A stretch of DNA of 64,000 nt from Clostridia bacterium (GTDB lineage: Bacteria > Bacillota > Clostridia > Oscillospirales > CAG-272): contig JAFYHA010000061.1 in NCBI GenBank assembly GCA_017539425.1, forward strand, positions 1,043 through 65,042. The letters are read 5' to 3'. The notes under the pieces are model-generated. The model ran no database searches. It saw only the letters and a list, made by a program, of their open reading frames with translations, and had not been told where the DNA came from. The position numbers and the translations under genes are program-made. Every line of letters starts with the position of its first letter. The stretch's first letter is position 1. Shown here in pieces: positions 1,777-61,683 of the stretch.

Positions 1777-1777
1777 A

Positions 1778-3076: not shown

Positions 3077-3077
3077 T

Positions 3078-7599: not shown

Positions 7600-8521
7600 C
7601 CCGGATATCCTCCTGTATCGCCATACGAAGGGCTTCCGTCGTCTCAAAACGGATCTCGTCACGCAGACGTTTCAAAAACCGGACCGAGATCCTGGATCCG
7701 TACACCTCCCGGTCAAAGCCGAGAATGTGCGTTTCGCAGTTCAGTTCCCGTCCGGTGTCCACGGTGGGCCTGAATCCGACGTTTGAAACCGCCGGATAGA
7801 CGTTCCCGTCCACGACAGCCTGCGTAACGTAGATCCCGCGGCGCGGGATCACGCTGTCCGGTCCGAACCGCTGGTTGACCGTCGGAACGCCGAGTTCCCG
7901 GCCCAGATGATGGCCCTCATATACGACTCCGGTCAGTTCAAACGGCCGGCCGAGAAGAAGATCCGCGAGTTCCAGATCTCCGGCCCGGATCAGCCAGCGG
8001 ATACGGCTGGAACTGACCACTCCGCCCATACAGACCCTCCGGGGTTTGACGAGGCACGGATCAAACGTCAGCCTGAGGGTTTCCGGGGTCCCTGCCCCAC
8101 CTTTTCCAAACCGGAAATTGAATCCGCAAACCACGCCCTCGCACCGGCATTCGCCAAGCAGTCTTTCCCGTATGAACTGCTCCGGGGACATATCCCGGAC
8201 GTCTTCAAACCGGTCCAGGACGGCATACCGGATCCCCGCATCCCGGAACAGCTCCAGGCGCTGCTCCAGCGTGGTCAGATGCCCGACCGGAGCCTTGGAC
8301 AGAAAATCCGACGAAGGCCGTTCAAAGCACCAGACCGCCGGAACGATCTCCGTTTCCGGATTCTCTTTCTTCCCGCTTTTTTCGAGTCTGGACGCCAGAC
8401 GGACCACGGACTCCAGCAGCTCCCTGTGGGCCAGATGCACGCCGTCGAAATTGCCCAGACCCAGTACGGTCCGGGGACGTTCCAACGTTTCTTTTCCTGT
8501 GGACAGATCCAGATAGGTCAC
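7565..8521 (-). CDS. ribF: Bifunctional riboflavin kinase / FMN adenylyltransferase
   Basis: GNFDGVHLAHRELL adenylyltransferase motif. C-terminal kinase block GVPTVNQ ... ETHILGFDREVYG. Confidence 0.93.
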   Translation of the reverse strand: MTYLDLSTGKETLERPRTVLGLGNFDGVHLAHRELLESVVRLASRLEKSGKKENPETEIVPAVWCFERPSSDFLSKAPVGHLTTLEQRLELFRDAGIRYAVLDRFEDVRDMSPEQFIRERLLGECRCEGVVCGFNFRFGKGGAGTPETLRLTFDPCLVKPRRVCMGGVVSSSRIRWLIRAGDLELADLLLGRPFELTGVVYEGHHLGRELGVPTVNQRFGPDSVIPRRGIYVTQAVVDGNVYPAVSNVGFRPTVDTGRELNCETHILGFDREVYGSRISVRFLKRLRDEIRFETTEALRMAIQEDIRDAERYFSEHPV

Positions 8522-8817
8522 GGACGGACTCCCATATAGGACCGGACCAGTTCGTTCATCATCTCGTCCCGGTCAATGTCGCGCAGGAGTTTGCGGGCTT
8601 CCCCAACGTTCGTGATATAGGTCGGGTCCTCGCTGAGCAGATAGCCCACGATCTGGGCGACCGGATTGTATCCGCCCTCCTCAAGCAATTTGTATATCTT
8701 TTTCAAAGCTTCCCCGGACGAAAGACCATTCGGTTCGCTGTTGTTCGGTTCCATACTGTTCCGCGCTCTTCTCCTCTCCTTTGCGGAGCCGGGGAAAGTC
8801 GCTTCTCCTTTCTGCAC
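8518..8817 (-). CDS. IreB-family regulatory phosphoprotein (UPF0297)
   Basis: LKKIYKLLEEGGYNPVAQIVGYLLSEDPTYITNVGEARKLLRDIDRDEMMNELVRSY matches the UPF0297/IreB core. The start is ambiguous: GTG at 8817 or ATG at 8754. Confidence 0.8.
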   Translation of the reverse strand: MQKGEATFPGSAKERRRARNSMEPNNSEPNGLSSGEALKKIYKLLEEGGYNPVAQIVGYLLSEDPTYITNVGEARKLLRDIDRDEMMNELVRSYMGVRP

Positions 8818-8838
8818 AGCGGTTGTTTTTCCTTTTCC

Positions 8839-8867
8839 ATTCTATCATAGTCGGATTTTGAATGCAA
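8839..8867 (-). promoter_or_regulatory. Putative sigma-A promoter for ireB-ribF-dac
   Basis: Minus strand: TTGCAT-17 nt-TAGAAT with TG at the extended -10 position. Confidence 0.4.
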
Positions 8868-9030
8868 CTCTTTTTGCATGGGACGATCCTTCAAAAAAAG
8901 CCGGATCTTGCGTTCCTTCCCGTAAGGAGGCGCAAAGGAGGGATCCCAACCCAAGCGCATCTGCCGTACCATATGCGGTTCCCGCTCCGTGGCCAGCCCG
9001 GGCCTGAATTATTCTCCTCTCCAAAGCATG

Positions 9031-9059
9031 TTGACAAAAACGCATTTTTATGATATTAT
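9031..9059 (+). promoter_or_regulatory. Putative sigma-A promoter for the ATPase gene
   Basis: TTGACA-17 nt-TATTAT with an extended -10 TG (TGATATTAT). Confidence 0.5.
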
Positions 9060-9097
9060 AAAGTGAGATTTACTTTTTCATAATTTTGGAGGGTATA

Positions 9098-10324
9098 ATG
9101 AACTATTGCACACGGGAATTGGAACGCAAATTTCTGAAAATGAACGGCTTTTTCAAAGCCATATTGGTTACGGGAGCGCGCCAGGTCGGCAAAACGACCA
9201 TGTTGAAACATTTAGCCGAAGGGACGGATCGCACCTATGTTTCTCTTGACAACTCTTTGGCGAGAGAGCTGGCCAAGAACGATCCCGTCCTGTTCTTCCA
9301 GACCTACAAGCCTCCGATCCTCATTGACGAAGTGCAGAAAGCGCCCGAACTTTTTGAACAAATTAAGATCATTTGCGACGGAAGCGAAGACAAGGGACTG
9401 TTCTGGCTGACAGGATCTCAACAGTACGGTATGATGAAGAACGTCCGTGAAACGCTCGCAGGCAGAGTCGGCATCCTGACGCTATACAGCTTTTCGCAAA
9501 GGGAAAAAAGCGGCCTCGGCTTTGAAACCGAACTTGATTTTTCGCTTGCAACCTTGCAGGCCAGGCAAAAGAGGGTCGGCAAAAACGACATCGTCAAGGT
9601 GTTCCGGCATATATGGGAAGGCGGAATGCCGCAGGCGATCGGTGCGGACGAAGAAATGCGCGCCGAATATTACAACTCTTATCTTGACACCTATCTGATG
9701 CGGGACGTTGCCGACGCGGGCGGAATCACGGACGAGGTGCGGTTCAAAAAGTTCGTGCGTGCGTGCGCGGCGTTGGTTGCGGAACAGGTGAATTACGCCA
9801 CGCTTGCGGAAGCGTCTGGCATCTCGCAGCCTACCGCCAAGAACTGGCTTGAAGTCCTGCAGGGTTTGGGGATCGTGTATCTGTTGCAACCCTACGCGAA
9901 CAATGAGCTGAAACGGCTCGCCAAAACGCCGAAACTGTATTTTTGTGACACCGGACTCTGCGCTTTTCTGTCCATGTGGTTGACGGCGGACGCGCTGAGG
10001 ATGGGCGCGGCAAGCGGACATTACTACGAAAACTATGTTGTGATGGAACTCGTACGCAACTACGCCTACTCCTCGGCAAAAGCAAATATCCTGTATTTCC
10101 GGGATTCCAACGCCAAGGAAATCGACGTATTCGTAGAGGAAAACGGAAAGATCCACCCGCTGGAGATCAAGAAATCGGCAAGTCCAGACCGTCGTGAGGT
10201 CAAGAAGTACCAAGTCCTGGAAAAAGCGTCGGTCGAGCGTGGAAACGGCGGGATCATCTGCATGTGCGAAGAGCCCATTCCAATCGATGCGGACAACTGC
10301 CTGATCCCGAGCAATCTGATCTGA
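9098..10324 (+). CDS. AAA ATPase - wHTH - DUF4143 (PD-(D/E)xK-like) protein
   Basis: Walker A GARQVGKTT and Walker B ILIDEVQ. wHTH-like ISQPTAKNWLEVLQGLGIVY. C-terminal EIDVFVEENGKIHPLEIKKS (D..E.K nuclease-like). Start set at MNYCTREL with GGAGGG RBS; the track ORF begins at TTG 9086. Confidence 0.8.
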   Translation: MNYCTRELERKFLKMNGFFKAILVTGARQVGKTTMLKHLAEGTDRTYVSLDNSLARELAKNDPVLFFQTYKPPILIDEVQKAPELFEQIKIICDGSEDKGLFWLTGSQQYGMMKNVRETLAGRVGILTLYSFSQREKSGLGFETELDFSLATLQARQKRVGKNDIVKVFRHIWEGGMPQAIGADEEMRAEYYNSYLDTYLMRDVADAGGITDEVRFKKFVRACAALVAEQVNYATLAEASGISQPTAKNWLEVLQGLGIVYLLQPYANNELKRLAKTPKLYFCDTGLCAFLSMWLTADALRMGAASGHYYENYVVMELVRNYAYSSAKANILYFRDSNAKEIDVFVEENGKIHPLEIKKSASPDRREVKKYQVLEKASVERGNGGIICMCEEPIPIDADNCLIPSNLI

Positions 10325-48412: not shown

Positions 48413-49372
48413 TCATTCCCATTCGGACGAACCGATTTCCTGTCCGAAAATCCACGTTCTTCCGCCGTCGTCCGTCCGGAAGAAGACCGTTTTCTGACCC
48501 TCCCGATCGTTCACACAGACGAAGACGATCCCTTCTTCCTCCAGGAAATAGGGAAAGAACGCGGTTGCGTAAGTGTATCCGGCATATTCGTCGGGAAGAC
48601 TGAGTCCCATATCCTGCCAGGTCCGGCCACCATCGAATGTCCCGAACAGTTTGAAATTGCCGGCAAAATCATCGGACAGAAGATCGTCCTGACAAAGGAA
48701 TCCGATCGTTTTTGACAGGATGAAAGCGCCGGTCACCCGATAGGGATATGCATTGTTGTCCCCGTACTCATAGTAATCCGTTCCGTTCTCCGTTCTCCAG
48801 ATCGTATGGATTCCTTTGTGAAACGGAATCGCTTCGTCCGTAACAAACACGAACCAGTCGTCCCCAGAAAAACCGCTTGCCGTGGAAATCCTGTCCGGAT
48901 CAACCAGCAGGTCAACGAGAAGTTTTTCCCGGGTATGGTCCGCCAGAGAGCGCCAAGCCCTGCTCCAGACCGATCCCGGAAATTGGGAATCGACAGTTAC
49001 GGGAGTCGGGATACTCGCACGGGCTTCCGTATCGTACCGATAGCTGTATGTGCTGAACGCGCAAAAGCTTTCCTGCATGCAGAAGTATGAGCCCCCCGAT
49101 CCCACCTCCGTAGACCCGAACGCCTCGGTAATATCCATCGGATTTCCTTTCAGGATCGAAATCGCCAAGGCTCTGAGCCGATTCCTGCCGGTATCGAATG
49201 AAACGCTTTCTTCCTGTTGAGATTCCGATTCGACCGTTTGTATGGAAGATTCGTCGTCCGGCCCGGGGATTGTTTCGCTCGGCCGATTAACCGAGCGGCA
49301 GGCGATGGCGGAGAGAAGCAAAGCGAGAAGAAGGAAAAGCAGGGGCCGCAGATGAATCTTATTGATTGTCAT
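48413..49372 (-). CDS. Lipoprotein with C-terminal Asp-box (BNR) repeats
   Basis: Signal peptide plus lipobox LSAIAC. Two Asp-box-like motifs, FDGGRTW and TDDGGRTW. Confidence 0.7.
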   Translation of the reverse strand: MTINKIHLRPLLFLLLALLLSAIACRSVNRPSETIPGPDDESSIQTVESESQQEESVSFDTGRNRLRALAISILKGNPMDITEAFGSTEVGSGGSYFCMQESFCAFSTYSYRYDTEARASIPTPVTVDSQFPGSVWSRAWRSLADHTREKLLVDLLVDPDRISTASGFSGDDWFVFVTDEAIPFHKGIHTIWRTENGTDYYEYGDNNAYPYRVTGAFILSKTIGFLCQDDLLSDDFAGNFKLFGTFDGGRTWQDMGLSLPDEYAGYTYATAFFPYFLEEEGIVFVCVNDREGQKTVFFRTDDGGRTWIFGQEIGSSEWE

Positions 49373-50420
49373 TTCCGTTAATTTTGGGGAAAGGTTTCAC
49401 ACACAACAAAAGGCTCTTGATTTCCTGCTCGGTCGTTGCCCAGGATGTGCAAATTCGGATCGCAGTGTGTGCGGAATCCGGAACCTCCCATACCTCCGCA
49501 CAAACAATCGCCCGGAACGCATCGAGTTGTTCGTTCTTCAAGATTATGAAAATCTGGTTCGTTGTTGTCTCAATCAGAAATGGATAACCCAACCTTTCCA
49601 GTTCCTTCCTGATCCTGTCTGCCATACGGTCTGCATGTTCTCCCAATTTGTAATACAAACCGTCAGTAAAAAGGGTTTCGAATTGAATGCCCAGCAACCA
49701 GCCCTTGGCCAGCAGCGCCCCGTGCTGTTTGATTCGGGTCACGTAATGGGACGGTGCATCTCCTTTTGGAAACACAATTGCTTCTCCGAACAGTGCGCCG
49801 CATTTCGTTCCCCCGATGTAAAAGACGTCCGCCAGTTTCGAAATGTCGGGCAGCGTCACGTCCGTGCCCTGCGCACAGAGCGCATAAGCCAGTCTGGCTC
49901 CGTCCAGGTACAGCCGGATGCCGTGCCCGTCGCACACTTTGCGCAGAGTCTTCAGTTCATCCTTGGTATACAGCGTGCCATATTCGGTAGGATGCGAGAT
50001 ATAGACCATGCCCGGAGCGACCATATGCTCCCTGGCCTCCTCCTGCTCGAATCCGGTAAGATAAGACTCCAGCTCACCGGCATCCACTTTTCCCTCGTGT
50101 CCGGGCAGTTCGATGACCTTGTGACCCGAATACTCGATGGCGCCGGCCTCATGGACGGCCACGTGTCCGGTGCGGGCTGCGATCACGCCCTCGTACGGTT
50201 CGAGAACCGTGTCGATGACCAGTTGGTTGGTCTGCGTGCCTCCAGTCACAAAAAAGACGTCCGCCTCCGGAGCCCTGCAAGCTTTACGAATCTTCTCTTT
50301 AGCGCTCTGGCAGACCGGGTCCGTTCCGTATCCGGGCTGACGAATCAGGTTATCGCTCTGCAGTCTTTCCAGTATCTCCGGTGCCGCTCCGATGCAGTAG
50401 TCGTTGGTAAAGAACACCAT
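49359..50420 (-). CDS. Threonine aldolase family PLP-dependent enzyme
   Basis: FTNDYCIGAAPEIL..., TGGTQTNQLVI, and a GGTKCGALFGEA lysine block. Confidence 0.75.
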   Translation of the reverse strand: MVFFTNDYCIGAAPEILERLQSDNLIRQPGYGTDPVCQSAKEKIRKACRAPEADVFFVTGGTQTNQLVIDTVLEPYEGVIAARTGHVAVHEAGAIEYSGHKVIELPGHEGKVDAGELESYLTGFEQEEAREHMVAPGMVYISHPTEYGTLYTKDELKTLRKVCDGHGIRLYLDGARLAYALCAQGTDVTLPDISKLADVFYIGGTKCGALFGEAIVFPKGDAPSHYVTRIKQHGALLAKGWLLGIQFETLFTDGLYYKLGEHADRMADRIRKELERLGYPFLIETTTNQIFIILKNEQLDAFRAIVCAEVWEVPDSAHTAIRICTSWATTEQEIKSLLLCVKPFPKINGNDNQ

Positions 50421-50423
50421 GAG

Positions 50424-51098
50424 TCACGCCTCCTCCTTTTTGGGAAGCAACCCTCTCGCCAGCATGACAAGTCCGCCCATTCCGGCACCGCCCACAGTGT
50501 TGCCGAGCACGATCATCAGAAGCCTCAGAATCGTATCTTTCGTCCAAATGCCGGCCGCGGCGACGTAGAACATATCCGCGATGGAATGCTCGAATCCGGC
50601 CAGTATGAATCCGGCTACACCCAAAACGACAAGGACCAGTTTCATGCCCGTATGTTCGACCGTCTTGTAGCCGTAGACCGCCACGAACATCAAAATCCCG
50701 CACCCCACGGCAAGCAGGAAGATCCTCCAGAACGGGATCTCGACCTTGGCGTTGACCAGGGCGGTCACGTTCGTAGTCGAGGTAAAATACTCCTTTAGGA
50801 CCGTGCCGAACAGGAACGTCCCGCAGAAATTGCCCAGGAGCGTGACCAGAAGTTCGGACAGCTTGAAACCGAGTTTCGCACCGGGCACGAACAGGTATCC
50901 GATCTTTCCCGTATAGAGGTGCAGACCGAACGCGAGGATCGTATACAGGCCCACAGAAAACAGGACCGCTCCGAATACGCGCCCGACCGTGCTTCCGTCC
51001 ACGGAAACCTTCAGGAAAACCGCTCCTCCTATGGAAATCATGATGCCGGCGAGAAATCCGGACAGCCATACCGACAAGGCATATTTCAAATGTCTCAT
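50424..51098 (-). CDS. Formate/nitrite transporter (FNT) family protein, short form
   Basis: Six hydrophobic segments, and GFEHSIADMFY matching the FNT signature (FEHSIANM). Confidence 0.75.
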   Translation of the reverse strand: MRHLKYALSVWLSGFLAGIMISIGGAVFLKVSVDGSTVGRVFGAVLFSVGLYTILAFGLHLYTGKIGYLFVPGAKLGFKLSELLVTLLGNFCGTFLFGTVLKEYFTSTTNVTALVNAKVEIPFWRIFLLAVGCGILMFVAVYGYKTVEHTGMKLVLVVLGVAGFILAGFEHSIADMFYVAAAGIWTKDTILRLLMIVLGNTVGGAGMGGLVMLARGLLPKKEEA

Positions 51099-51166
51099 TA
51101 TTCCGCCGCGGCACGAAGGCCGCCACCTCCTATGGATTGAATCTCATTGTTTTGTCGTCAAACCGC

Positions 51167-52135
51167 TCATACATCCGGCGAGCCTTTCGCCTCTCCGGAC
51201 AGGCAGGATCCGACGAACTCTCTCGTCAGCGCCTCGTACCGTTCCGGATCCCTCAGGCAGCTTAGCACATGCCCGGCTCCGGGAAACACTTCGTACCGGA
51301 TCTTCGGATTCGAAGGCAGGATCTCACGGCTCATCTCGATGGGCACGAACCGGTCGTCGTCCCCGTGGATGATCAGGATCGGGACCTTGGCCTTTTTGAC
51401 CGCCTCAATCGGCGAGGCCGAATTCAGACGGAACCGGCCGAACAGAAACCCGCTGAACGTGACGAGCGGATAGAAGACGGCAGGCGGAAGATGCGCGCCC
51501 TTCCGGCAGTGCATGGAGATGATCTCCTTAGGCGAACCATACGGGGCGTCCGCTACGATTCCCTTCAGCTGCACGGGCGTGTCCAGCCCGGATGCCATCA
51601 GCACCGTGGCTGCACCCATGGACACGCCGAACCAGAGGATCCGGATGTCCGGGCCGAACCGTTTTACGGCGTATTCGGTCCAGGTGATCGCATCACGGCG
51701 TTCGTTGATTCCAAACGTAAGCGTATGTCCTCCGCTCTCCCCGTGCCCGCGCTCGCTGATGAGCAGCACGTTGCATTTCATGCGCTTCAGGATCCCGATT
51801 CCGCCCCGGAAATCCCGGATGTCCAGTCCGCGCCAGCCGTGAAAGCATATGCACAGCGGCGCATCCGGATCCCCGAACGCAAAGTACTTCCCGGACAGCC
51901 GGAGCCCGTCGAACGACTCGACCGACACCTTTTCGAAATCCGAGGCCATCAGCTCTCGGATACCCGCCAAATGCGCCTCCTTGTACGGGGCGTACTGTTC
52001 GTTGTCCGGATAGTAGAACGGGTCGTTCTGCCCGCGATGCGGCGTATAGAACGAATAGTAGTAAATGGCAAAAAGGCTTCCGGAAAAGACGACGAGGACC
52101 GAAAGCGCGATCCAGACCCAAAGCATGTCAGCCAC
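51167..52135 (-). CDS. Membrane-anchored alpha/beta hydrolase
   Basis: N-terminal TM. HGW oxyanion region (ICFHGWRG), nucleophile elbow GVSMGA, and distal D and H (IIHGDDD, GAGH). Confidence 0.8.
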   Translation of the reverse strand: MADMLWVWIALSVLVVFSGSLFAIYYYSFYTPHRGQNDPFYYPDNEQYAPYKEAHLAGIRELMASDFEKVSVESFDGLRLSGKYFAFGDPDAPLCICFHGWRGLDIRDFRGGIGILKRMKCNVLLISERGHGESGGHTLTFGINERRDAITWTEYAVKRFGPDIRILWFGVSMGAATVLMASGLDTPVQLKGIVADAPYGSPKEIISMHCRKGAHLPPAVFYPLVTFSGFLFGRFRLNSASPIEAVKKAKVPILIIHGDDDRFVPIEMSREILPSNPKIRYEVFPGAGHVLSCLRDPERYEALTREFVGSCLSGEAKGSPDV

Positions 52136-52296
52136 CTCCTTGCGATATGCCTGCCCGCCCCATGCGGGGGGAAAAGTACACTATCTATTATAGTTAACGT
52201 AAATGGTTATGTCAACAAATGCGGCACATGCCGACACCCTCGGAGTGACACCAAACTTTTTTCGTGCCCGTGAGGATGTCTTTTTCTCGCATAGTC

Positions 52297-52325
52297 TTGA
52301 GTTTGTGCACCGCGTCCCATATAAT
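52297..52325 (+). promoter_or_regulatory. Putative sigma-A promoter of the PHP/GRE operon
   Basis: TTGAGT-17 nt-TATAAT. Confidence 0.5.
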
Positions 52326-52374
52326 AGAGATAGACGTTCGCATGCAATCCGCGAACGGACCGATCGGAGTCGTT

Positions 52375-53736
52375 ATGGAAGAACTGCATTTGGTCAACTA
52401 CAAACTCACGCCGTCCGTCGTCGAGGTCGGCCGGCCCACGACCGTCACCATCGCCCCTCGGGGAGATCAGGTCTACTTCAACGAGAACACGACCTATCTT
52501 CTGGACATCATCGGGGTCGGGACGGCCACGAAACAGCTCAACGGGGCGCACGGAAAGCGTCTGACCCTGAAGCCCGTGGACGGAAAACTCGTCTTCACGG
52601 AAACGTTCGAGCGCGAGCAGCAGTACGTGCTCAAGCTGGTCCTGCCCGAATCCCATATGTTCTGCACCAATCCGTACTATCAGCCGCCGGCGCACGGCCG
52701 TGTCTCCCGTCCGGGGGATCAGCGCAACCCGGTGCTGTATCTGTACGCGCTGGAACCCGATCTGTACCGGCTCCGTCCGTATAAGGGCGACTTCCATCTG
52801 CACTCCTCGGATTCGGACGGACACGAGTCCTCCTGCGGGGTCCTGGCCAATCTGCGCAAGGCGGGCTATGACTTCTCCGCCCTGACGAACCATTACTGGT
52901 ATCACTCCGCCGCCAAAGTCCGCAAACTCTGGGAAGGCCTTCCCGACGTCTTCACGGTACTGACCGGCGAAGAGGTCCACACGCCGACCGAACTGCTGCA
53001 CGCCGTCTCCATCGGTGCGTCCGAAAGCGTCAACGATCTGTATTACCAGAACCGTGAAGCCTGCGACGCGGAGATCGCCGAAATCGAGCGGGAACTGGAC
53101 CTTCCGGACACCGTCGATCCTCACAACTACGCCGCCCGGCTCTGGGTCGCTCGGACGATCCGCAGATTCGGCGGACTGTCCATCCTGGCCCATCCGCACT
53201 GGATCTGGTCGAACGTCTATTTCATGCCGGAAGACCTGACCGTAAAGCTGCTGGAGTCCGGCGAGTATGAAGCGCTGGAACTCCTCAACGGAGACTGCGG
53301 ACCGGAGACCAACACCCTGCAGACCGCCCTGTATTTCGAGGAGCGCGCCAAAGGCTTCGATCCCCCGGTCGTGGGCAGCAGCGACTGCCACCGTACGGAC
53401 CGCGCGGATGAACGTTTCCCCACTCCCGCGTTTACCTATGTCTTTGCCGAAGACCGTTCCTTCGAAGCCATCCACAAGGCCATTCTGGGCCATCAGACGG
53501 TGGCCGTCGAGAAATATCGCGAGGATTCCTCGTTCCACATTTACGGCTCCTACCGTCTTGTCAAATACGCGAACTTCCTGATGCGCAACTACAACCCCCG
53601 TTACACCGAACTGTGCTATCCGCAGGGTACGCTGCTCCGGGAATACGAGACGGATCCGAAGCCGGAGACCGCATCTCTTCTGACCCTTCTGTATGCCCGG
53701 AGCGAAGCCTATGCCGCCTCGTTCTTTGGAAAGTAG
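52375..53736 (+). CDS. PHP-domain (CehA/McbA-like) metal-dependent phosphoesterase/hydrolase with an approximately 135-aa N-terminal beta-rich domain
   Basis: GDFHLHSSDSDGH opening motif of the PHP fold, later LAHPHW and GSSDCH. Start set at MEELHLV with GGAG RBS. Confidence 0.75.
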   Translation: MEELHLVNYKLTPSVVEVGRPTTVTIAPRGDQVYFNENTTYLLDIIGVGTATKQLNGAHGKRLTLKPVDGKLVFTETFEREQQYVLKLVLPESHMFCTNPYYQPPAHGRVSRPGDQRNPVLYLYALEPDLYRLRPYKGDFHLHSSDSDGHESSCGVLANLRKAGYDFSALTNHYWYHSAAKVRKLWEGLPDVFTVLTGEEVHTPTELLHAVSIGASESVNDLYYQNREACDAEIAEIERELDLPDTVDPHNYAARLWVARTIRRFGGLSILAHPHWIWSNVYFMPEDLTVKLLESGEYEALELLNGDCGPETNTLQTALYFEERAKGFDPPVVGSSDCHRTDRADERFPTPAFTYVFAEDRSFEAIHKAILGHQTVAVEKYREDSSFHIYGSYRLVKYANFLMRNYNPRYTELCYPQGTLLREYETDPKPETASLLTLLYARSEAYAASFFGK

Positions 53737-53750
53737 ATCGGAGAACAGCC

Positions 53751-54647
53751 ATGCCATCAGGTCAGATCTTCAACATCCAGCGCTTTTCCGTTCACGACGG
53801 ACCTGGCGCTCGCACGACCGTATTCTTCAAGGGCTGCAACCTGCGCTGCCTGTGGTGTCACAATCCGGAGTCCTTTTCACCGAAGCCGGACCTGGAATTC
53901 AACCCCCAGAAATGCATCGGCTGCGGGACCTGTTTCCGTGTCTGCCCCCAAAACGCGCACACCCTGGACGCAAGCGGCCGCCATACGATTGACAGAACCC
54001 AATGCCAGCACTGCCTGGTCTGTGCGGATCAGTGTTATGCGGGCGCACTGAAAGCCGTCGGGCAGACCGTGGACACGGATTACGTGATGAAGCAGATCCT
54101 TTCAGACAAGGACTACTATGACCGGTCCGGAGGCGGTGCCACGTTCTCGGGCGGCGAATGCATGCTGCAGCTTGAGTTTCTGGAGTCCCTTCTCCTTTCC
54201 TGCCGTGAAGCCTCGGTATCCACCGCGGTCGATACGGCCGGCAACGTACCCTTCGAATCTTTTGAACGCATCCTTCCGCTCACCGACCTGTTCCTGTTCG
54301 ACGTCAAGGCGGCGGACCCGGTCCGTCACAAGGAACTGACCGGCGTATCCAACGAGCGCATACTCTCCAATCTTCACAGGCTCAGGGATGCAGGCGCCCG
54401 GATCATCATCCGGAGTCCCCTCATTCCCTCCCGCAACGGTGACCAGATCGAGGGGATCGCCCGGATCCTCAGGGATATCCGGCCTGAACTCGTGGAACTT
54501 CTTCCCTTCCATAAACTCGGTTCTTCCAAATACGCGGCCCTGGATCTTCCGGACCCCTGTCTTGACGAAGCCATTCCGGACAAGGACACGGTCGACCGGG
54601 TCCTGCAGATCCTCCGGTCCGCCGGACTCAACGCCAGAAAAAGCTGA
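53751..54647 (+). CDS. Glycyl-radical enzyme activating protein (radical SAM)
   Basis: FSVHDGPGARTTVFFKGCNLRCLWCHNPE (CX3CX2C) plus a ferredoxin-like insert (CIGCGTCFRVCP, CQHCLVCADQC). Start trimmed to MPSGQIF. Confidence 0.93.
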   Translation: MPSGQIFNIQRFSVHDGPGARTTVFFKGCNLRCLWCHNPESFSPKPDLEFNPQKCIGCGTCFRVCPQNAHTLDASGRHTIDRTQCQHCLVCADQCYAGALKAVGQTVDTDYVMKQILSDKDYYDRSGGGATFSGGECMLQLEFLESLLLSCREASVSTAVDTAGNVPFESFERILPLTDLFLFDVKAADPVRHKELTGVSNERILSNLHRLRDAGARIIIRSPLIPSRNGDQIEGIARILRDIRPELVELLPFHKLGSSKYAALDLPDPCLDEAIPDKDTVDRVLQILRSAGLNARKS

Positions 54648-54658
54648 AAGGATGTCTG

Positions 54659-56851
54659 ATGAGAACTCTGGATACCTCTCCCGTCCGGCTCTCCCCGCTC
54701 TATAAGGAGCGCATTGACCGGCTCCACACGGACAAGCTGAAAATGAACGACATCAAGATGAAGGTCTTCGATCATCTCAATTTTGACGACTGGGGCTTCG
54801 TCTATTTCCCGGATTTCAAGTTCACGCCCGAACCGAACGGTCCGGACGGACTGGTGTACGGATACCGGGCCATCGGGAAGAATTTCCGCCGGTATCTGTG
54901 TGAAATCCCGCAGTATATCCATCCGGCGAGCGCACTGGGCGGCGCCTGGATCGGACAGCTGACCGACTTCTGCCGCATCGGCCTTCCTCCCGAAGACGAC
55001 ATTGACCCGGAGACCCGCGCCTGCTGGGCCAAATACCACACCTATCCCGGATTCGGAGGCATGAACCACTGTGCCGGCGATATCAACATCGGCCTCTCCC
55101 TGGGCTGGGGCGGAATACTGAAGAAACTCAGGTACTACCGGGAACTGAACGCTCCCGCGGATCCCGCGTTCTATGACGGTGAGGAGGATCTGGTCCTGGG
55201 CATCCAGACCTGGGTAAAAGGGATCGCGGACCATGCCAGAGCACTGGCCGCCGGATCCGCCTCGGACGAGGAAAGGGCCAACCTCCTGGACATCGCGGAT
55301 ATGAACGACTGGCTCGTCGAGAACCCGCCCAGGACCTTCCGGGAGGCCTGCCAGTTTCTGGCGCATTTCCAGTCCGTGGACCGCATGTACTACGTCGGGG
55401 GCGCGCTGGATCAGCTGGACGAAAAGCTCCGTCCCTACTATGAGCGCGATACGGAAGCCGGCATCCTGACCGATGAGATGGCGGTGTGGTGCATCGCCAG
55501 CCTGTTCTTCAACGATACGCACTATTCCCAGATCGCGGGCCTGACCCCGGACGGGTCCAGGGACATGACCAGCCGGATGAGTTTCATCGTACTGGACGCC
55601 ATGCATGCCATCCGGATCCCGGTCAACATTGCCGTGCGGGTCAGCGACAAACTCAACGAGACACTGCTGCGCCGTTCCCTGGAGTACACCATCGCGGACG
55701 GGACCGGTGTGGACTACTCCTGCAACATCGGCATCGAGCAGGGCTACATGCGCAACGGTTATCCGGAGGGTCTGGCCCGCCAGCGCATCAAGGTGGGCTG
55801 CAACTGGTGCTGCGTATGCGGTCACGAATATCCCCTGCAGGACGTGACCCGGGCCAATATGGGGTTCGCCCTGTACTGGGCGCTGCAGGATATCCGCAAG
55901 GAACCGGACAAGAGCACCGAAAGGCTGTTCGAGCTGTTCAAGAAACATACGCAGATCATCGTGGACTCCATCAAGCGGGGCTATGACAGACATTACGAAG
56001 TGATGGGAAAGGACCGGCCCGAGATCGTGTACAACCTTCTCATGTACGGTCCCGTCGAACGGGGGCTCAACTGCTCGGAAGGCGGTGTGGACATCCTGAA
56101 CTTCAACATCGACGGCGTCGCCCTGGCCACGGTAGCGGACTCTTTTGCCGCCATCGAACAGCGCATCGAGCGGGAGCACCGGCTCACCTGGGAGGAACTC
56201 TTCGAGGCTCTGGACGCGAACTATGAGGGATACGAACCCGTCCGGCTGATGCTGAAGAACATCAACCGTTTCGGATCTCCGGACAGCCTGGCCGAACCCT
56301 GGGCGCTCCGCATCCGCGATTTCTTCGTATACGCCTGCAAACATGAGGGTACCCCGAAGCATCATCTGATGATCATACCCGGTCTGTTCTCCCACGGTGC
56401 GATCGGAGAGTACGGTTCCCGTCTCCCGGCCACGCCAAACGGGCGGAAGAATTATGAACCGATCTCCCACTCCAACGAACCGGATCCCGGGTTTGCCAAC
56501 GGTCTGAACACGTTTTCGCCCACGCTGAAGGCTTCCGCGGTCGCGATTGCGCAGCCCGGTTTCGGCAATTCCGCTCCGCTGCACCTGGACATCGATTCCG
56601 AGATGCTGGACAAGGAGGGCGGGATCGAAGCGCTGATGGCGCTGATCCACACGCACAACCATCAGGGCGGCACGCTGATCAACCTCAACTGTCTGACCAA
56701 GGAGACACTTCTGGAAGCGCACGAGGATCCGTCCACGCATCCGGACCTTCTGGTCCGGGTCACCGGCTACTCCGCGTTCTTCGCTTCCCTGTCCAAGGAC
56801 TACCGGCAGCAGATCGTGGACCGGTTTCTCTCCAGGGAAAGCCAGTCCTGA
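54659..56851 (+). CDS. Glycyl radical enzyme, PFL2-like superfamily, uncharacterised subtype (730 aa)
   Basis: C-terminal glycine-radical motif LLVRVTGYSAFF (Gly703). PRTFREACQ and GGALDQLDEKLRPYY blocks. Cys loop VGCNWCCVCGH (Cys381). Confidence 0.9.
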   Translation: MRTLDTSPVRLSPLYKERIDRLHTDKLKMNDIKMKVFDHLNFDDWGFVYFPDFKFTPEPNGPDGLVYGYRAIGKNFRRYLCEIPQYIHPASALGGAWIGQLTDFCRIGLPPEDDIDPETRACWAKYHTYPGFGGMNHCAGDINIGLSLGWGGILKKLRYYRELNAPADPAFYDGEEDLVLGIQTWVKGIADHARALAAGSASDEERANLLDIADMNDWLVENPPRTFREACQFLAHFQSVDRMYYVGGALDQLDEKLRPYYERDTEAGILTDEMAVWCIASLFFNDTHYSQIAGLTPDGSRDMTSRMSFIVLDAMHAIRIPVNIAVRVSDKLNETLLRRSLEYTIADGTGVDYSCNIGIEQGYMRNGYPEGLARQRIKVGCNWCCVCGHEYPLQDVTRANMGFALYWALQDIRKEPDKSTERLFELFKKHTQIIVDSIKRGYDRHYEVMGKDRPEIVYNLLMYGPVERGLNCSEGGVDILNFNIDGVALATVADSFAAIEQRIEREHRLTWEELFEALDANYEGYEPVRLMLKNINRFGSPDSLAEPWALRIRDFFVYACKHEGTPKHHLMIIPGLFSHGAIGEYGSRLPATPNGRKNYEPISHSNEPDPGFANGLNTFSPTLKASAVAIAQPGFGNSAPLHLDIDSEMLDKEGGIEALMALIHTHNHQGGTLINLNCLTKETLLEAHEDPSTHPDLLVRVTGYSAFFASLSKDYRQQIVDRFLSRESQS

Positions 56852-56867
56852 CATATGTAAAAAAACC

Positions 56868-56899
56868 GACCCCCGTTCCGGTGCATGCCGGCGGGGGTC
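56868..56899. terminator. Bidirectional terminator between the convergent GRE and LarA-like operons
   Basis: GACCCCCG-16 nt-CGGGGGTC flanked by AAAAAAA (5') and TTTCTTT (3'). Confidence 0.7.
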
Positions 56900-56919
56900 T
56901 TTCTTTGCTGTTTCGAACG

Positions 56920-58203
56920 TTAGGACTGCTCGAACCGTTCCCGGTCGATCCAGAGACCGAGTGCGGGATTGGGGATGAAGTAGATCTCTTCCCCGTCCAC
57001 GGTATTGTATCCGTATCTGAGTTTGTCCGGATCGTATACGGCGCGCGTCCGGTCATAATCCGCGGCCCGGAAGCCGACGCCTTCGATCTCCTCTTTCGAG
57101 ATGTCCCTGACTGCATAGGTGATCGTGAAGCGGCCGTCCGAGCTGCCGTGGATCAGATGCGCCGCGGCGCCCATATTGTCCCGGAGGTCCTGGTTCTCGG
57201 GCCTGCGAAAGGCCTCCAGCGTATTCAGCCGGCCGCGGTATCCGTATTTGCGGATGAGTCCGTCGACCTGTCCGTCCTCGCCGAACCGTTCCACACCCGG
57301 TGCCAGCACGATCAGTTCACCCCCGTCGGCCATCGCCATCCGGGTCCGGTACACCGATTTGTTGCCGAGCCAGGTGCTCTTGAATTCGGTCGGGTCCAGA
57401 TAGACCACACACTTTTTCAGTCCGTGCTCCACGAAATCGATGTTTTTCTGCTGGGCCAGCTTCACAGCGCTGGTCAGACAGGTCCGGCTCTCGCCCAGGA
57501 ACAGCCCGTGGGTATGGATCTTCCCGCCCGGGGCCGTGGTCACGGTCAGGGCGAACAGGATCGGCCGATGGGAGAGAAAGTGTTCCATTCCGTAGTCAAA
57601 AATCTTCCGGACAGGGGTATTGTCCCGGCCCATCATCCTCTCCATTCCGTAGACTGCCCCGATCATATGGGACTTGTTGATCATGTCGCTGCCGCCCACA
57701 CCGACAAACAGGTTCTTGGCGTGGTTGGACATGCCTATGACTTCGTGCGGAACGACCTGTCCGGGAGAAATGATCAGGTCATAGCTCTCATCCATGACCC
57801 GGCGGTTGATCTCGGCGTCGACCGGATCAGTCCACAGTCCGTCCGTAATGGACGCGATATAATCCCCGGGCACTTCACCCAGCCTGACCACGTCCGTACG
57901 CCAGTTGTGAACCAGCATTTTTTCATACGGAATGTCGCCGAACATCGCTTCCCACTGGGACCGGGTGACCGGGACATGCGTGCCGAGAGCCGGCATGATA
58001 TCCACCTGCACACCGTTTTGGGTCAGCAGATGGTAGTACACATGGGTCAGAAAACCGGCATTGGAGTGAAACCGGGTAAAATCCGGAGGCAGGATCAGCA
58101 CCTTGTGAAGCTGCCGGCCTTCCAGACTCCGCTCTACCGCCTTCTTGAGTTCCTCCGGGGAAAGTCCCTCCCCGGTTTTGGCGATCACATTGATGTCTTC
58201 CAT
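56920..58203 (-). CDS. LarA-like (lactate racemase / DUF2088 family) putative nickel-pincer-dependent 2-hydroxyacid racemase or epimerase
   Basis: Blocks line up with L. plantarum LarA from memory: VLILPPDFTRFHS vs IVIISSDHTRPVP; ALGTHVP vs ATGFHRP; ISPGQVVPHEVIGMSNHAKN vs ISEGFIESHFFAGFSGGRKS; NKSH vs ANHS. 427 aa versus 424 aa. Confidence 0.7.
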   Translation of the reverse strand: MEDINVIAKTGEGLSPEELKKAVERSLEGRQLHKVLILPPDFTRFHSNAGFLTHVYYHLLTQNGVQVDIMPALGTHVPVTRSQWEAMFGDIPYEKMLVHNWRTDVVRLGEVPGDYIASITDGLWTDPVDAEINRRVMDESYDLIISPGQVVPHEVIGMSNHAKNLFVGVGGSDMINKSHMIGAVYGMERMMGRDNTPVRKIFDYGMEHFLSHRPILFALTVTTAPGGKIHTHGLFLGESRTCLTSAVKLAQQKNIDFVEHGLKKCVVYLDPTEFKSTWLGNKSVYRTRMAMADGGELIVLAPGVERFGEDGQVDGLIRKYGYRGRLNTLEAFRRPENQDLRDNMGAAAHLIHGSSDGRFTITYAVRDISKEEIEGVGFRAADYDRTRAVYDPDKLRYGYNTVDGEEIYFIPNPALGLWIDRERFEQS

Positions 58204-58207
58204 ACTC

Positions 58208-59044
58208 TTACCTCAGTTCCGGCATCAGCCGGTAGATCTCCTGCGCGACACCGCTTTCATCGCAGGATCCGGTCACCCGGTCCGCGATCTTGCGTATGGC
58301 CTCGGGAGCGTTGGCCATCTCGACGCCTACCCCGGCCTTTTTCAGGATGCTCTCGTCGTTGTAATCGTCCCCGAACGCGACTGTGCCCGCCATATCCAGG
58401 TGCAGATGCTCCGCAAGCGCGGCAAGGGCGTTTCCCTTCTGCGCCTGCAGGCTGTTGATCTCGATGTTGTTCACGATGGCCGTGGTCACCGAAAGGTCCG
58501 GGAACCGCTCCTTGAGGTCCGGGATCGTCCGGAGCCTAAGATCCATGTCCTTGAAGAACATCTGCAGTTTCTGTATGTCGTGCTTCGTATCCAGGATATG
58601 GGCCTTGAGTTCCGGGACCGGCTTGCGCAGCATCCGGATGTTTTCCAGCACGTGGACGGACGGAGCGAACTCCGCCGCCCGGTCGTACATGCTCTGCGTC
58701 ATCCATCCCCAGTTGTCCATGTAGCAGTCATAGATCACCGGAAGCGCATCCAGATAGGTCAGCACCTCGACGGCCCGTTTATAGGGGATCTCCGCCTTGC
58801 AGACGGCCTGCTGTTTCCGTACGTCCCACACCTGGGCACCGTTGATCGTGATGCCGTAGTGTACGAACGGAAGGGACCGGATGCATTCCGGCATGCCCTC
58901 ATAGAACCGTCCGGTCGCCGGGACGATCTCCACGCCGGCTTCGGCCGCCCGGGTCAGTGCCCTCCGGTTCTCATCGGTCAGGACCTTGTCCGAGGTCAGG
59001 AGCGTCCCGTCCAGGTCCAGGGCGATCAGCTTATATTCAGGCAT
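58208..59044 (-). CDS. Cof-type HAD-IIB family hydrolase (sugar phosphatase-like)
   Basis: LIALDLDGTLL DxD motif, VPATGR, and a C-terminal GDDYNDESIL motif. Start at MPEYK; overlaps the gnd stop (ATGCCTGA). Confidence 0.88.
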   Translation of the reverse strand: MPEYKLIALDLDGTLLTSDKVLTDENRRALTRAAEAGVEIVPATGRFYEGMPECIRSLPFVHYGITINGAQVWDVRKQQAVCKAEIPYKRAVEVLTYLDALPVIYDCYMDNWGWMTQSMYDRAAEFAPSVHVLENIRMLRKPVPELKAHILDTKHDIQKLQMFFKDMDLRLRTIPDLKERFPDLSVTTAIVNNIEINSLQAQKGNALAALAEHLHLDMAGTVAFGDDYNDESILKKAGVGVEMANAPEAIRKIADRVTGSCDESGVAQEIYRLMPELR

Positions 59045-60488
59045 TGTAGGTGCTCGCACTGGTATTCCCGCCGTGGCCGGTCCAGTTGGTGTGGAAGAAC
59101 TCTCCTCTCGGAGCATCCACTCTCTCGTAGGTGTGCGCGCCGAAATAGTCTCTCTGCGCCTGCAGAAGGTTGGCCGGAAGGTTCTCGGTGGTATAGCCGT
59201 CGAACCAGCTCAGGGCCGAGGAGAAGGCAGGCATGGGGATGCCCGCGCTCACGGCATAGGCCACGACCTGTCTCCAGGAGGAGACCAGTGTCTTCATGAC
59301 CGAGCAGAAATAGTCGTCCATCAGGAGGTTCTCGAGAGCCGGGTTCTTGTCGTAGGCTTCCTTGATCTTGCCTAAGAACACCGACCGGATGATGCATCCT
59401 CCACGCCACATCATGGCGATCCCGCCATAGTTCAGGTTCCAGCCGTAGGTCTTTGCGGCGGCGCGCATCAGGGTATAGCCCTGTGCGTAGGACACGATCT
59501 TGGAGGCGTACAGCGCCTTGCGCACGGATTCAATGAATGCGGCGCGGTCTCCGGTAAAGGCCGGGATCTCCCGGGGATAGAGGGCGGACGCGCGGACACG
59601 CTCGTCCTTCATGGCGGACAGACAGCGCGCGAACACGGCTTCCGAGATCAGGGTCAGCGGAACGGCTTCGTCCAAAGCGGCGATCCCGGTCCATTTGCCC
59701 GTTCCCTTCTGGCCGGCGCGGTCCAGGATCTTCTCGACCGTGGTCTCACCCTTCTCATCCTTGTAGCCCAGGATGTCGCGGGTGATCTCGATGAGGTAGG
59801 AATCCAGCTCGGTCTTGTTCCAGTCCGCGAAGACCTGATGCATCTCCTCGCTGGTCATGCCGAGTCCGTCACGGAGCAGCTGGTAGGCTTCGCAGATCAG
59901 CTGCATATCGCCGTATTCGATCCCGTTGTGGACCATCTTGACGAAATGGCCGGCACCGTTCTCACCCACCCAGTCGCAGCAGGCTTCCCCGCTCTCCACT
60001 TTGGCGCAGATGGCCTGGAAGATCGGTTTCACATAGGGCCAGGCCGCCGGGCTTCCGCCGGGCATCATGGAAGGGCCTTTCAGGGCGCCCTCTTCACCTC
60101 CGGACACGCCGGTACCCACATAGAGCAGTCCTTTGCTCTCCACATATGCGGTGCGGCGGATGGTATCCGGAAAATGCGAATTGCCTCCGTCCACGATGAT
60201 ATCGCCGGGTTCCAGGATACCCAGCAGTTTCTCGATGAAGTCATCCACCGGCTGGCCGGCCTTGACCATCAGGAACACGATGCGGGGCTTAGTCAGGCTG
60301 GCGGCCAGTTCCTCCAGGGAATGGCAGCACACGATGTTCTTTCCCGCGGCTCTTCCGCCGATAAAATCGTCCACCTTGGATACGGTACGGTTGTATACCG
60401 CGACCGTGAATCCCTTGGATTCCATATTCATGACCAGGTTCTCGCCCATTACGGCCAGTCCGACAAGTCCGATATCCGCTTTTTTCAT
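59037..60488 (-). CDS. gnd: 6-phosphogluconate dehydrogenase (decarboxylating)
   Basis: IGLVGLAVMGENLVMNMESKGF, GGNSHF, HNGIEYGDMQLI, and a C-terminal RDYFGAHTYERVD. Confidence 0.96.
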   Translation of the reverse strand: MKKADIGLVGLAVMGENLVMNMESKGFTVAVYNRTVSKVDDFIGGRAAGKNIVCCHSLEELAASLTKPRIVFLMVKAGQPVDDFIEKLLGILEPGDIIVDGGNSHFPDTIRRTAYVESKGLLYVGTGVSGGEEGALKGPSMMPGGSPAAWPYVKPIFQAICAKVESGEACCDWVGENGAGHFVKMVHNGIEYGDMQLICEAYQLLRDGLGMTSEEMHQVFADWNKTELDSYLIEITRDILGYKDEKGETTVEKILDRAGQKGTGKWTGIAALDEAVPLTLISEAVFARCLSAMKDERVRASALYPREIPAFTGDRAAFIESVRKALYASKIVSYAQGYTLMRAAAKTYGWNLNYGGIAMMWRGGCIIRSVFLGKIKEAYDKNPALENLLMDDYFCSVMKTLVSSWRQVVAYAVSAGIPMPAFSSALSWFDGYTTENLPANLLQAQRDYFGAHTYERVDAPRGEFFHTNWTGHGGNTSASTYNA

Positions 60489-60552
60489 GATTCTTTTGCC
60501 GCGCGGACTCCGTGTCCGGCGGTCCCTCCGTTTGTTTTGATATTGGTTTGGG

Positions 60553-61626
60553 TCATCTTTGGACCCTTGCGTTTCCTTTGTATACGTCCCAGACCTGCTT
60601 TTCGTCCGCAGGATCGGCCCAGTCGTTCAGGCTGGATGCGGCCATGACGCCGCTTGCCCATCCGAACTGCAGCCATTTTTCGGGTTCCCAGCCGCACAGC
60701 ACGCCGTACAGCAGTCCGCCCGAGAATCCGTCGCCGCCGCCGATCCGGTCCATGACCTGGATGGGACGCGGCTCTTCCACGTACCACTTGCCGTCCGCCC
60801 AGAGGATGGCACCCCACAGATGCTCATTTGCGGAGAGCACTTCACGCAGCGTGGTCGCGTAGGCCCTGGCGTTGGGATACTTCTCATGCACCTGTCCGAT
60901 CATGACCTTGAACCGTTCCAGCTTGTCCCCAAGGTCCTTGCCTCCGGCTTCCGGTCCGGCAAAGCCCAGGCAGAGCTGGAAGTCCTCTTCGTTGCCGACC
61001 AGGATGTCGGCGATCGAGGCGATCTCATGGAACGCGCGGGACAGTTCCTCCTCGCGTCCTTTCCAGAACGTCGCGCGGTAGTTCAGGTCAAAGCTGACCA
61101 GCGTGCCGTACTTCTTGGCGACCCGGGCTATATCCAGACAGCATTTCGTCGTGCTTTCGCTCATAGCCGCGATCAATCCGGAAATGTGGAGGATGCCTAC
61201 ACCCTCCTGTCCGAAGATCCGCTCCAGGTCAAAATCTTCCGCGGACAGTGTCCGTCCGATCTCACCGGCCCGGTCGTTCCATACGCGGGGAGCGCGCAGG
61301 CCGAATCCGGAATCCGCAATATTGAACTGATGACGGTATCCCCACGGTCCGCCCTGCGGAACGTCCAGTCCCTCGTAGCGGATATTCCGCGCACGGAGCT
61401 GTGCCTTGATGAAGGCCGCGATCGGGCTGCCTTCCACGAACTTGGTCAGGGCCAGGCATTCCTTGCCCAGGCTGGACGTGATGTTGAGCACGTTGGTCTC
61501 CGCCGATGTGGACTGGAGATAGAACAGATTGGAGGACTGCACCGCCATCCTGTCCTGAGGGGTGATCCGGACGCCCATGCTGGTCACGGCCGCGATCGCA
61601 TACGTATACTCTCGTACTTTTAACAT
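60553..61626 (-). CDS. PfkB-family sugar kinase (2-dehydro-3-deoxygluconokinase-like)
   Basis: C-terminal ATP/anion-hole block VMDRIGGGDGFSGGLLYG. Overall KdgK-like layout. Start chosen at MLKVREY; the track ORF starts at 61674 with a Lys-rich extension. Confidence 0.8.
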   Translation of the reverse strand: MLKVREYTYAIAAVTSMGVRITPQDRMAVQSSNLFYLQSTSAETNVLNITSSLGKECLALTKFVEGSPIAAFIKAQLRARNIRYEGLDVPQGGPWGYRHQFNIADSGFGLRAPRVWNDRAGEIGRTLSAEDFDLERIFGQEGVGILHISGLIAAMSESTTKCCLDIARVAKKYGTLVSFDLNYRATFWKGREEELSRAFHEIASIADILVGNEEDFQLCLGFAGPEAGGKDLGDKLERFKVMIGQVHEKYPNARAYATTLREVLSANEHLWGAILWADGKWYVEEPRPIQVMDRIGGGDGFSGGLLYGVLCGWEPEKWLQFGWASGVMAASSLNDWADPADEKQVWDVYKGNARVQR

Positions 61627-61683
61627 ATTAGAAAAGATCCTCTCTTTGGATTTCTTGATTTTTGCTTTTTTCATGCCTGCGGC

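Follow-up and report, generated by a model that had tools for sequence, protein, structure and literature searches.

A compact C-N-W glycyl radical enzyme and its activase as a probable two-gene module with a likely carbohydrate-derived substrate

This study concerns three adjacent genes and their flanking control elements in a stretch of 64,000 nucleotides from contig JAFYHA010000061.1 of a Clostridia bacterium (assembly GCA_017539425.1), which we refer to as the window. The genes encode a PHP-fold hydrolase, a radical S-adenosylmethionine (SAM) activase and a compact glycyl radical enzyme (GRE) (Table 1). A preliminary description, made from the DNA letters, had read them as one dedicated pathway and had taken the presence of the PHP gene to suggest that the GRE acts on, or produces, a phosphorylated or otherwise esterified compound. 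Our data make a different reading probable. The activase and the GRE would form a two-gene module of a compact clade, here called C-N-W, with a substrate that is most likely unphosphorylated and derived from carbohydrate, while the PHP gene is a lineage-specific neighbour.

Table 1. Features of the locus, with positions in the window
Feature	Position	Strand	Basis
Promoter candidate, sigma-70-like (TTGAGT-17 nt-TATAAT, 50 nt 5' of the PHP ATG)	52297..52325	+	Read directly and by scan; putative function
PHP-fold metal-dependent hydrolase, 453 aa	52375..53736	+	Homologue lengths, invariant metal residues, AF2 fold matches
GRE-activating radical-SAM enzyme, 298 aa, two-cluster ferredoxin insert	53751..54647	+	TIGR02494, Pfam, motifs
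Compact PFL-like GRE, 730 aa, C-N-W clade	54659..56851	+	PF02901, PF01228, AF2, Foldseek
Cys loop G380-C381-N382-W383	55796..55807	+	Profile alignments, family invariance
Glycyl-radical motif R700-V-T-G703-Y-S-A706	56756..56776	+	Read in the sequence; invariant across the GRE family
Bidirectional intrinsic-terminator hairpin, common to the convergent LarA-like gene	56868..56899		Folding energy; - strand terminator called by scan

The arrangement of three co-directional genes between a promoter-like element and a bidirectional hairpin, as previously described, was confirmed in its coordinates. The two elements of the promoter candidate (TTGAGT at 52297-52302, TATAAT at 52320-52325) match the consensus at 10 of 12 positions and lie within the only intergenic gap (52136-52374). 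Two promoter-like sites were found in 5.2 kb, where 1.5 +/- 1.1 are expected; the count alone is not significant, and the candidate is credible because of its position alone. The stop and start positions leave 14 nucleotides (nt) between PHP and activase and 11 nt between activase and GRE, as had been stated. Since the gaps are this short and the promoter scan of 52000-57200 gave no second site on the + strand, co-transcription of the three genes from the PHP promoter in the source organism is plausible, and we retain the earlier proposal of a single transcript at this strength. The hairpin (GACCCCCG...CGGGGGTC) has a folding energy of -26.7 kcal/mol (z = -4.8), which none of 200 shuffled sequences reached. 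It is preceded by an A-run, followed by a T-rich tract and faces the convergent LarA-like gene. As noted before, the usual GRE partners are missing: the annotated flanking open reading frames (ORFs; 47.7-52.1 kb and 56.9-63.9 kb) include no gene for a shell protein, an aldehyde or alcohol dehydrogenase or a small subunit. The intergenic region 52136-52374 holds, besides the PHP promoter candidate, a perfect TTGACA-17-TATAAT (12/12) at 52187-52215 on the - strand, directed toward the divergent alpha/beta-hydrolase gene (51167-52135).

The GRE carries the domains PF02901 (PFL-like, 230 bits) and PF01228 (Gly_radical, 49 bits) and shows the features that define IPR004184, namely a barrel and a glycyl-radical domain, the RVxG[FWY] motif and the Cys-loop cysteine. 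The motif RVTGYSA with the radical glycine Gly703, already noted in the preliminary description along with PFL2-type blocks, is invariant across the family. Superposition of the AlphaFold2 (AF2) model (pLDDT 92.6) on solved GREs, which had been suggested there, gave Foldseek TM-scores of 0.72-0.84 at 17-21% identity, with 0.79-0.84 for the eliminases. The best profile matches in the PDB were CutC (212 bits) and, in second place, PflD (191 bits). X-succinate synthases gave only weak, partial PDB matches (MasD 121 bits, TutD 96 bits), and their accessory-subunit genes were not seen in the window or in the loci described below.

Curated models for GREs of known function scored far below their cut-offs. 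TIGR01774 gave 170 bits against 678, and the models for HpsG, HypD, CutC, PflD-type enzymes, HpfG, HPAD and IAD gave 84-161 bits against about 1000-1150. For the eliminases and isomerases (GD/PFL2, HypD, CutC, HpsG, HpfG) this corresponds to 114-170 bits against 678-1100, and for the decarboxylases to 94 bits against 1150 (NF033715) and 84 bits against 1100 (NF033718); neither the 11-14-nt gaps nor the stretch ahead of the terminator contained an ORF for an HPAD-like small subunit. The model for pyruvate formate-lyase (PFL), TIGR01255, reached 38 bits against 994. Because the scores are so far below the equivalog cut-offs and the identity to solved enzymes is only 17-21%, the view that the GRE falls outside the characterised clades is supported at the level of sequence, and its chemistry stays unassigned, as the preliminary description had put it. 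With 730 residues the enzyme is indeed shorter than all characterised GREs in our PDB list; however, the range of 790-900 residues previously given for these did not hold, since PFL has 759 residues and the PflD constructs 776-781.

We found 902 homologues of the GRE at E <= 1e-10, nearly all of 720-735 residues; the few with a name from their source carry the generic name "pyruvate formate-lyase". For the analysis of genomic context, one genome per species was used, which gave 80 loci with GRE homologues of 51-85% identity. The family occurs in at least six phyla, its 73 members from these loci coming from Clostridia, Chloroflexota, Latescibacterota, Gemmatimonadota, Spirochaetota, Hydrogenedentota and others. 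One Latescibacterota contig (L070) has two activase-GRE pairs about 4.6 kb apart, at 1243-3396 (-) and 8001-10124 (+), one of the C-N-W family and the other with a divergent GRE that has no C-N-W loop. In Anaerocolumna sedimenticola (L069, 8001-10165) the GRE homologue is seemingly split into ORFs of 527 and 196 residues, which may reflect a frameshift or a pseudogene in that isolate.

The activase scores 341 bits with TIGR02494 (cut-off 174) and contains the Pfam domains Radical_SAM and Fer4. Its CNLRCLWC motif (CX3CX2C) occupies residues 29-36 (nt 53835-53858), and two CX2CX2CX3C motifs are present at residues 55-65 (nt 53913-53945) and 85-95 (nt 54003-54035). The TIGR02494 score and the two motifs bear out its earlier designation as a ferredoxin-insert activase. 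The GRE thus has a cognate radical-SAM activase next to it, a further feature of its superfamily. A natural fusion protein of 1052 residues (P0195) combines a ferredoxin-insert activase with a short C-N-W GRE, which is 37% identical to the GRE of the window.

The active-site residues were placed by profile alignment to five solved enzymes, CutC, PflD, HypD, propanediol dehydratase (PD) and glycerol dehydratase (GD). The family sequence K-V-G-C-N-W-T-A-I-P-G-R aligns opposite G-C-V-E-x-x-x-x-G-K/R of these enzymes, so that Trp383 takes the place of the Glu in the C-x-E motif and Asn382 that of the Val before it. Cys381 aligns with Cys489 of CutC, Cys433 of GD and the equivalent cysteines of HypD, PD and PflD. 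The GCNW sequence is invariant in all 73 family members and in 119 database homologues. According to a review of June 2026, all characterised eliminases and isomerases keep the C-x-E motif, whose Glu is hydrogen-bonded to the substrate and catalytically essential where tested; the window family has C381-N382-W383 instead. The same review distinguishes seven GRE classes, with no enzyme of the C-N-W kind among them, and our full-text searches of the GRE literature, papers since 2023 included, turned up nothing that matches the clade.

Outside the loop, His137 and Asp395 are the aligned equivalents of GD His164 and Asp447, whereas Gly248 and Ala249 stand where GD has His281 and Ser282. Invariant in the family are H137, D395, N285-D286-T287-H288-Y289, E390, Q394, R398, F577-S578-H579, D644 and D646. 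Pocket-lining positions of known GREs are occupied by N285, D286, T287, H288, Y289, E390, Q394, R398, S578, H579, D644 and H642; Q394 and R398 stand at the positions of CutC Thr502 and Tyr506, and H642 varies between His and Gln. The predicted radical relay of Gly703 and Cys381 with its cognate activase is intact, and the predicted pocket is conserved, unusual and polar. In the window, the Cys loop reads GCNWCCVCG (residues 380-388, 55796-55822) compared with GCNWTAIPG in the family. The additional cysteines C384, C385 and C387 occur in only 4-10 of 74 relatives (C384 in 10), so the adjacent Cys-Cys pair of formate lyases has no conserved counterpart here.

A search of 1.8 billion protein cluster representatives revealed a series of short C-x-W GREs around the C-N-W family: CNW proteins at 51-52% and at 35-39% identity, CHW proteins at 31-43%, and CQW, CFW, CGW and CPW proteins at 26-32%. 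Canonical C-x-E proteins do not appear until the identity has dropped to about 30% and the score to below 180 bits. We tentatively suggest that the C-N-W, C-H-W, C-Q-W and C-F-W clades (about 700-775 residues) might represent a further functional class of GREs, with radical chemistry on free carbohydrates or carbohydrate-derived acids that does not involve the Glu-assisted ketyl elimination known from eliminases and isomerases. One possibility is that C-x-W GREs act on keto-sugars provided by adjacent Gfo/Idh/MocA dehydrogenases.

A GGAG ribosome-binding site precedes the ATG at which the PHP gene starts, and the resulting length agrees with that of its homologues (453-465 residues); a longer ORF with a GTG start at 52264 begins 5' of the promoter-like site. 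The protein consists of an N-terminal beta-sandwich (residues ~1-125), a PHP barrel and a C-terminal helical bundle (~393-451). It has no Pfam match, though some homologues carry PF02811, and the CehA/McbA domain NF038032 is found with 51.8 bits, below the cut-off of 80. The eight residues of the predicted metal site (H141, H143, H173, E200, H209, H273, D337 and H339) are invariant across 69 PHP homologues. The AF2 model (pLDDT 95.2) finds its best PDB fold matches in 3e38 and 2anu, PHP-family phosphoesterases of unknown function, in RNase AM and in 2yb1, a nucleotide bisphosphate phosphatase-like amidohydrolase. Since the His/Asp/Glu set is invariant and the folds match, the earlier assignment as a PHP-fold metallohydrolase is supported, with a metal site that is predicted to be intact. 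The family is small, with 68 database homologues, none of which is informatively named.

Does this hydrolase work together with the GRE? In about 60 of the 80 loci, the gene immediately upstream of the GRE codes for a homologous activase. A PHP homologue, on the other hand, is present within 8 kb of the GRE in a single locus (L002, from a rumen Clostridia metagenome-assembled genome), in which a gene for a 505-residue protein on the opposite strand separates PHP and activase. L002 also has the genes for a beta-eliminating lyase, a formate/nitrite-family (FNT) transporter and an alpha/beta-hydrolase in common with the window. No PHP homologue was found within 8 kb at the loci whose GREs are 85% and 80% identical to that of the window. 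We also inspected seven contexts of PHP homologues with flanks of 6-8 kb. Only the 89%-identical homologue (L086) keeps the order PHP-activase-GRE, with a 3-nt gap, while no GRE occurs within 6-8 kb of the homologues at 74, 67, 52, 47, 40 and 36% identity, whose contexts vary. The 67% homologue still adjoins FNT and beta-eliminating-lyase genes, and L081 shows the PHP gene beside such genes in the absence of a GRE. Because these neighbours are kept without the GRE, we assign the PHP gene to the FNT/lyase block.

In the window this block extends over 49359-53736 and comprises a beta-eliminating-lyase/threonine-aldolase-like gene, a short FNT transporter, the alpha/beta-hydrolase and the divergent PHP hydrolase. 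A block of lyase, FNT, PHP and in part the alpha/beta-hydrolase genes recurs in L002, L081 and L086, with or without a GRE.

The PHP hydrolase is thus a fortuitous or lineage-specific neighbour, and a functional coupling to the GRE is not supported; the activase-GRE module has therefore been joined to the PHP block solely in a narrow lineage. The preliminary description itself had held that the adjacency would be fortuitous if PHP and GRE genes were not co-localised in related genomes, and this is what we observed. Its claim of a dedicated partner is not supported, with PHP near the GRE in 1/80 loci and the GRE absent in 6/7 PHP contexts, and the phosphorylated or esterified substrate deduced from the pairing fails with it, because the pairing is not conserved. 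The case also illustrates that close spacing of genes in a single genome says little about whether their products work together.

The neighbours that do recur in the 80 loci, as determined by clustering, point in a different direction. Sugar ABC transporter genes were found in 25 loci and Gfo/Idh/MocA genes in 16, the latter often as two genes directly downstream of the GRE. Other recurrent neighbours are glycoside hydrolases (GH38, GH2, GH3, GH43), GtaA-like proteins, GxGYxYP hydrolases, AraC and GntR-LacI regulators, sulfatases and URO-D-like proteins. A comparison of Pfam domains in near and far genes was made independently of the neighbour clusters. The immediate neighbours (n=141) include 9 Gfo/Idh/MocA, 6 GtaA-like, 4 GH38, 5 ABC permease and 12 AraC or GntR-LacI genes, whereas Gfo/Idh/MocA, GtaA-like and GH38 each occur at most once among genes at least five positions away in the same loci (n=140). 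Moreover, recurrent ABC, glycoside hydrolase and Gfo/Idh/MocA genes make up 23-26% of the neighbours at positions 1-3 but only 4% of those at positions 6-7. The association with sugar genes is seen in Clostridia as well as in Chloroflexota loci, with arrangements such as GxGYxYP-GRE-GH38 and substrate-binding protein-permease-permease-GRE. The neighbours of the Gfo/Idh/MocA type are similar to IolG, levoglucosan dehydrogenase and glycoside 3-dehydrogenases, all below the respective cut-offs. Taken together, a carbohydrate link of the GRE family is probable.

Further genes recur around the GRE. Proteins of about 740-806 residues (L033, L042, L050 and L060, e.g. L060 8769-11108) and of about 760 residues (L041 10223-12505, L049 10193-12478) are encoded on the same strand in the GRE cluster; they have no Pfam domain and no sequence match in the PDB, and some of these loci also contain ABC genes. 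In L024 (613-3028) and L025 (3722-6182), activase-GRE is immediately preceded by a pair of URO-D-family genes, seven immediate neighbours overall have a URO-D domain, and L041 and L049 carry a Cys/Met-family pyridoxal phosphate enzyme in place of the URO-D pair. DHDPS-family and DapF-like neighbours were considered as an aldolase/epimerase step and dropped, because they score above the DapA/DapF equivalog cut-offs and may be ordinary lysine-biosynthesis genes.

Several points weigh against the reading of a carbohydrate-linked module with an incidental PHP neighbour. The 89% relative shows the order PHP-activase-GRE, and in L002 a distance of only 1.7 kb separates the genes, so a local functional link retains some probability. 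The carbohydrate context is heterogeneous, with a recurrent ABC, glycoside hydrolase or Gfo/Idh/MocA gene in at least 42 of 76 loci and not in all, and many of the Gfo/Idh/MocA cases are not independent because they come from related Lachnospiraceae. A simple count of the loci in which any sugar gene lies within 8 kb (42/76) proved uninformative; we rejected this measure because 3 of 6 PHP-centred control loci match it as well, and replaced it by the decay with distance and the near/far comparison given above. In the window and in the closest relatives (L001, L003, L086), the genes next to the module include neither a sugar transporter nor a sugar hydrolase. Furthermore, the pocket residues were mapped by alignment only and not from model coordinates. 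A residue other than Glu at Cys+2 is presumably not unique either: PFL does not have the Glu of the C-x-E motif, and the same apparently applies to X-succinate synthases and to phenylacetate decarboxylase.

With these points in mind, three other explanations have to be weighed. If PHP, activase and GRE were a dedicated three-gene pathway, in which PHP removes or otherwise processes a phosphate or ester moiety of the GRE's substrate or product, one would expect the short gaps behind a single promoter-like site, the same gene order in L086 and the proximity in L002, and the invariant pocket residue R398 could bind an anionic group while PHP has its metal site intact. Against this stand the 79 of 80 GRE loci with no PHP gene within 8 kb, including those with the 85% and 80% identical GREs, the opposite-strand gene inserted in L002, the PHP homologues at 36-74% identity in unrelated contexts with no GRE nearby, and the company of PHP with FNT and the beta-eliminating lyase where the GRE is absent (L081). 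In addition, the transporters of the GRE family are ABC importers, which bring in unphosphorylated sugars. We consider such a pathway improbable.

Alternatively, the GRE could be a conventional enzyme for free sugars or polyols, either an eliminase that cleaves a C-O bond or an isomerase that opens a ring. It might, for instance, correspond to PflD/YbiW but use unphosphorylated substrates, with another base in place of the Glu. This agrees with the structural and profile matches (PD with a TM-score of 0.84, CutC, PflD), with the retained His137 and Asp395 and with the sugar-related context; some Gfo/Idh/MocA enzymes reduce anhydrofructose. Nevertheless, this explanation is rather unlikely, as the Glu that is universal in the characterised enzymes is here an invariant Trp across the sampled phyla, the GD pair His281/Ser282 has become Gly248/Ala249 and the identity is just 17-21%. 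A PFL-like formate lyase for 2-keto acids, working together with the FNT transporter encoded 1.2 kb upstream, could be proposed from that gene, from the extra cysteines of the loop, from a length close to that of PFL and from R398, which is presumably reminiscent of PFL Arg435. The extra cysteines are not conserved, however, the PFL model scores far below its cut-off, the activase is of the ferredoxin-insert and not of the PflA-like type, and FNT stays with the PHP block in genomes that have no GRE and is absent from 79 of 80 GRE loci. We therefore rejected this identity as very unlikely.

For the activase-GRE module with an unphosphorylated, carbohydrate-derived substrate, which we prefer, the following mechanism can be envisaged from knowledge of the GRE family. 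In the source organism and its closest relatives, activase and GRE would be placed directly behind the PHP promoter. The activase, using SAM and a [4Fe-4S] cluster, would take a hydrogen from Gly703; the glycyl radical would then generate a thiyl radical on Cys381, which would abstract a hydrogen from the substrate. The latter may be a free sugar or a compound derived from one, bound through side chains of His, Asp, Asn, Gln and Arg, and R398 hints at an anionic group on it. We favour an unphosphorylated substrate because the recurrent neighbours are Gfo/Idh/MocA enzymes, glycoside hydrolases, sugar ABC importers and regulators of the AraC and GntR-LacI types. As the Glu base is absent, either another residue (Asp395, Asp286, His288 or Glu390) substitutes for it or the chemistry differs from a ketyl-driven beta-elimination; for example, the adjacent dehydrogenases may oxidise the substrate beforehand, or Arg398 may anchor its carboxylate.

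On the other side of the terminator, four genes on the - strand (56920-61674) converge on the GRE. They encode a LarA-type protein, a Cof-type HAD phosphatase, a 6-phosphogluconate dehydrogenase and a PfkB kinase and may together form a sugar-acid module. The LarA-type protein exceeds the cut-off of the nickel-pincer "putative hexonate epimerase" model NF052594 with 613 bits. A link between these convergent genes and the GRE was not found in other genomes.

GREs enable chemically difficult steps of anaerobic metabolism, and each new assignment of a clade has revealed a pathway of relevance to the gut or the environment, namely from choline to trimethylamine and for hydroxyproline, isethionate and anhydro-sugars. 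GRE clades with no characterised member are already known to exist. The C-N-W clade has a wide distribution, with members in Clostridia of the rumen and gut, in digesters and in sediments. Since it also occurs in glycan-utilisation loci and does not have the residue held essential in its nearest relatives, it is a well-defined target in the search for a new anaerobic carbohydrate reaction. Some of its hosts are in culture (Anaerocolumna spp., Ruminiclostridium cellobioparum, Eisenbergiella tayi and Robinsoniella peoriensis), which makes the enzyme directly testable.

Compared with known systems, the first protein of the locus shares the PHP barrel and the metal ligands HxH...H...E...H...H...DxH with the PHP/CehA-McbA metallohydrolases, but it remains below the NF038032 cut-off and has an additional N-terminal beta-sandwich and C-terminal helical bundle. 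With PFL/TdcE, which are among the shortest characterised GREs, the GRE of the window has in common the fold and a residue other than Glu at Cys+2. In contrast to them, its family has no conserved Cys-Cys pair and a different type of activase, and the alignment is limited to the C-terminal 190 residues (61 bits). The GRE 1,2-eliminases (PD 5I2G, GD 1R9D, CutC 5FAU and HypD 6VXC) resemble it in the ten-stranded barrel, the Gly loop RVxGYS, the position of the Cys loop, the His/Asp pair equivalent to His164 and Asp447 of GD and the ferredoxin-insert activase. However, the window GRE has C-N-W instead of C-V-E and Gly/Ala in place of GD His281/Ser282, is about 60-120 residues shorter, is not accompanied by microcompartment or aldehyde-dehydrogenase genes and stays below 17% of the cut-offs of the equivalog hidden Markov models. 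The PflD/YbiW isomerases of "anhydroglycolysis" (8ID0/8ID7) are likewise carbohydrate-linked and organized as simple modules of GRE and activase with no microcompartment. They use sugar 6-phosphates, and the Glu of their C-x-E motif forms a hydrogen bond with the C2 hydroxyl (2026 review), whereas the family described here has Trp at the position of this Glu, with ABC importers and Gfo/Idh/MocA dehydrogenases encoded nearby.

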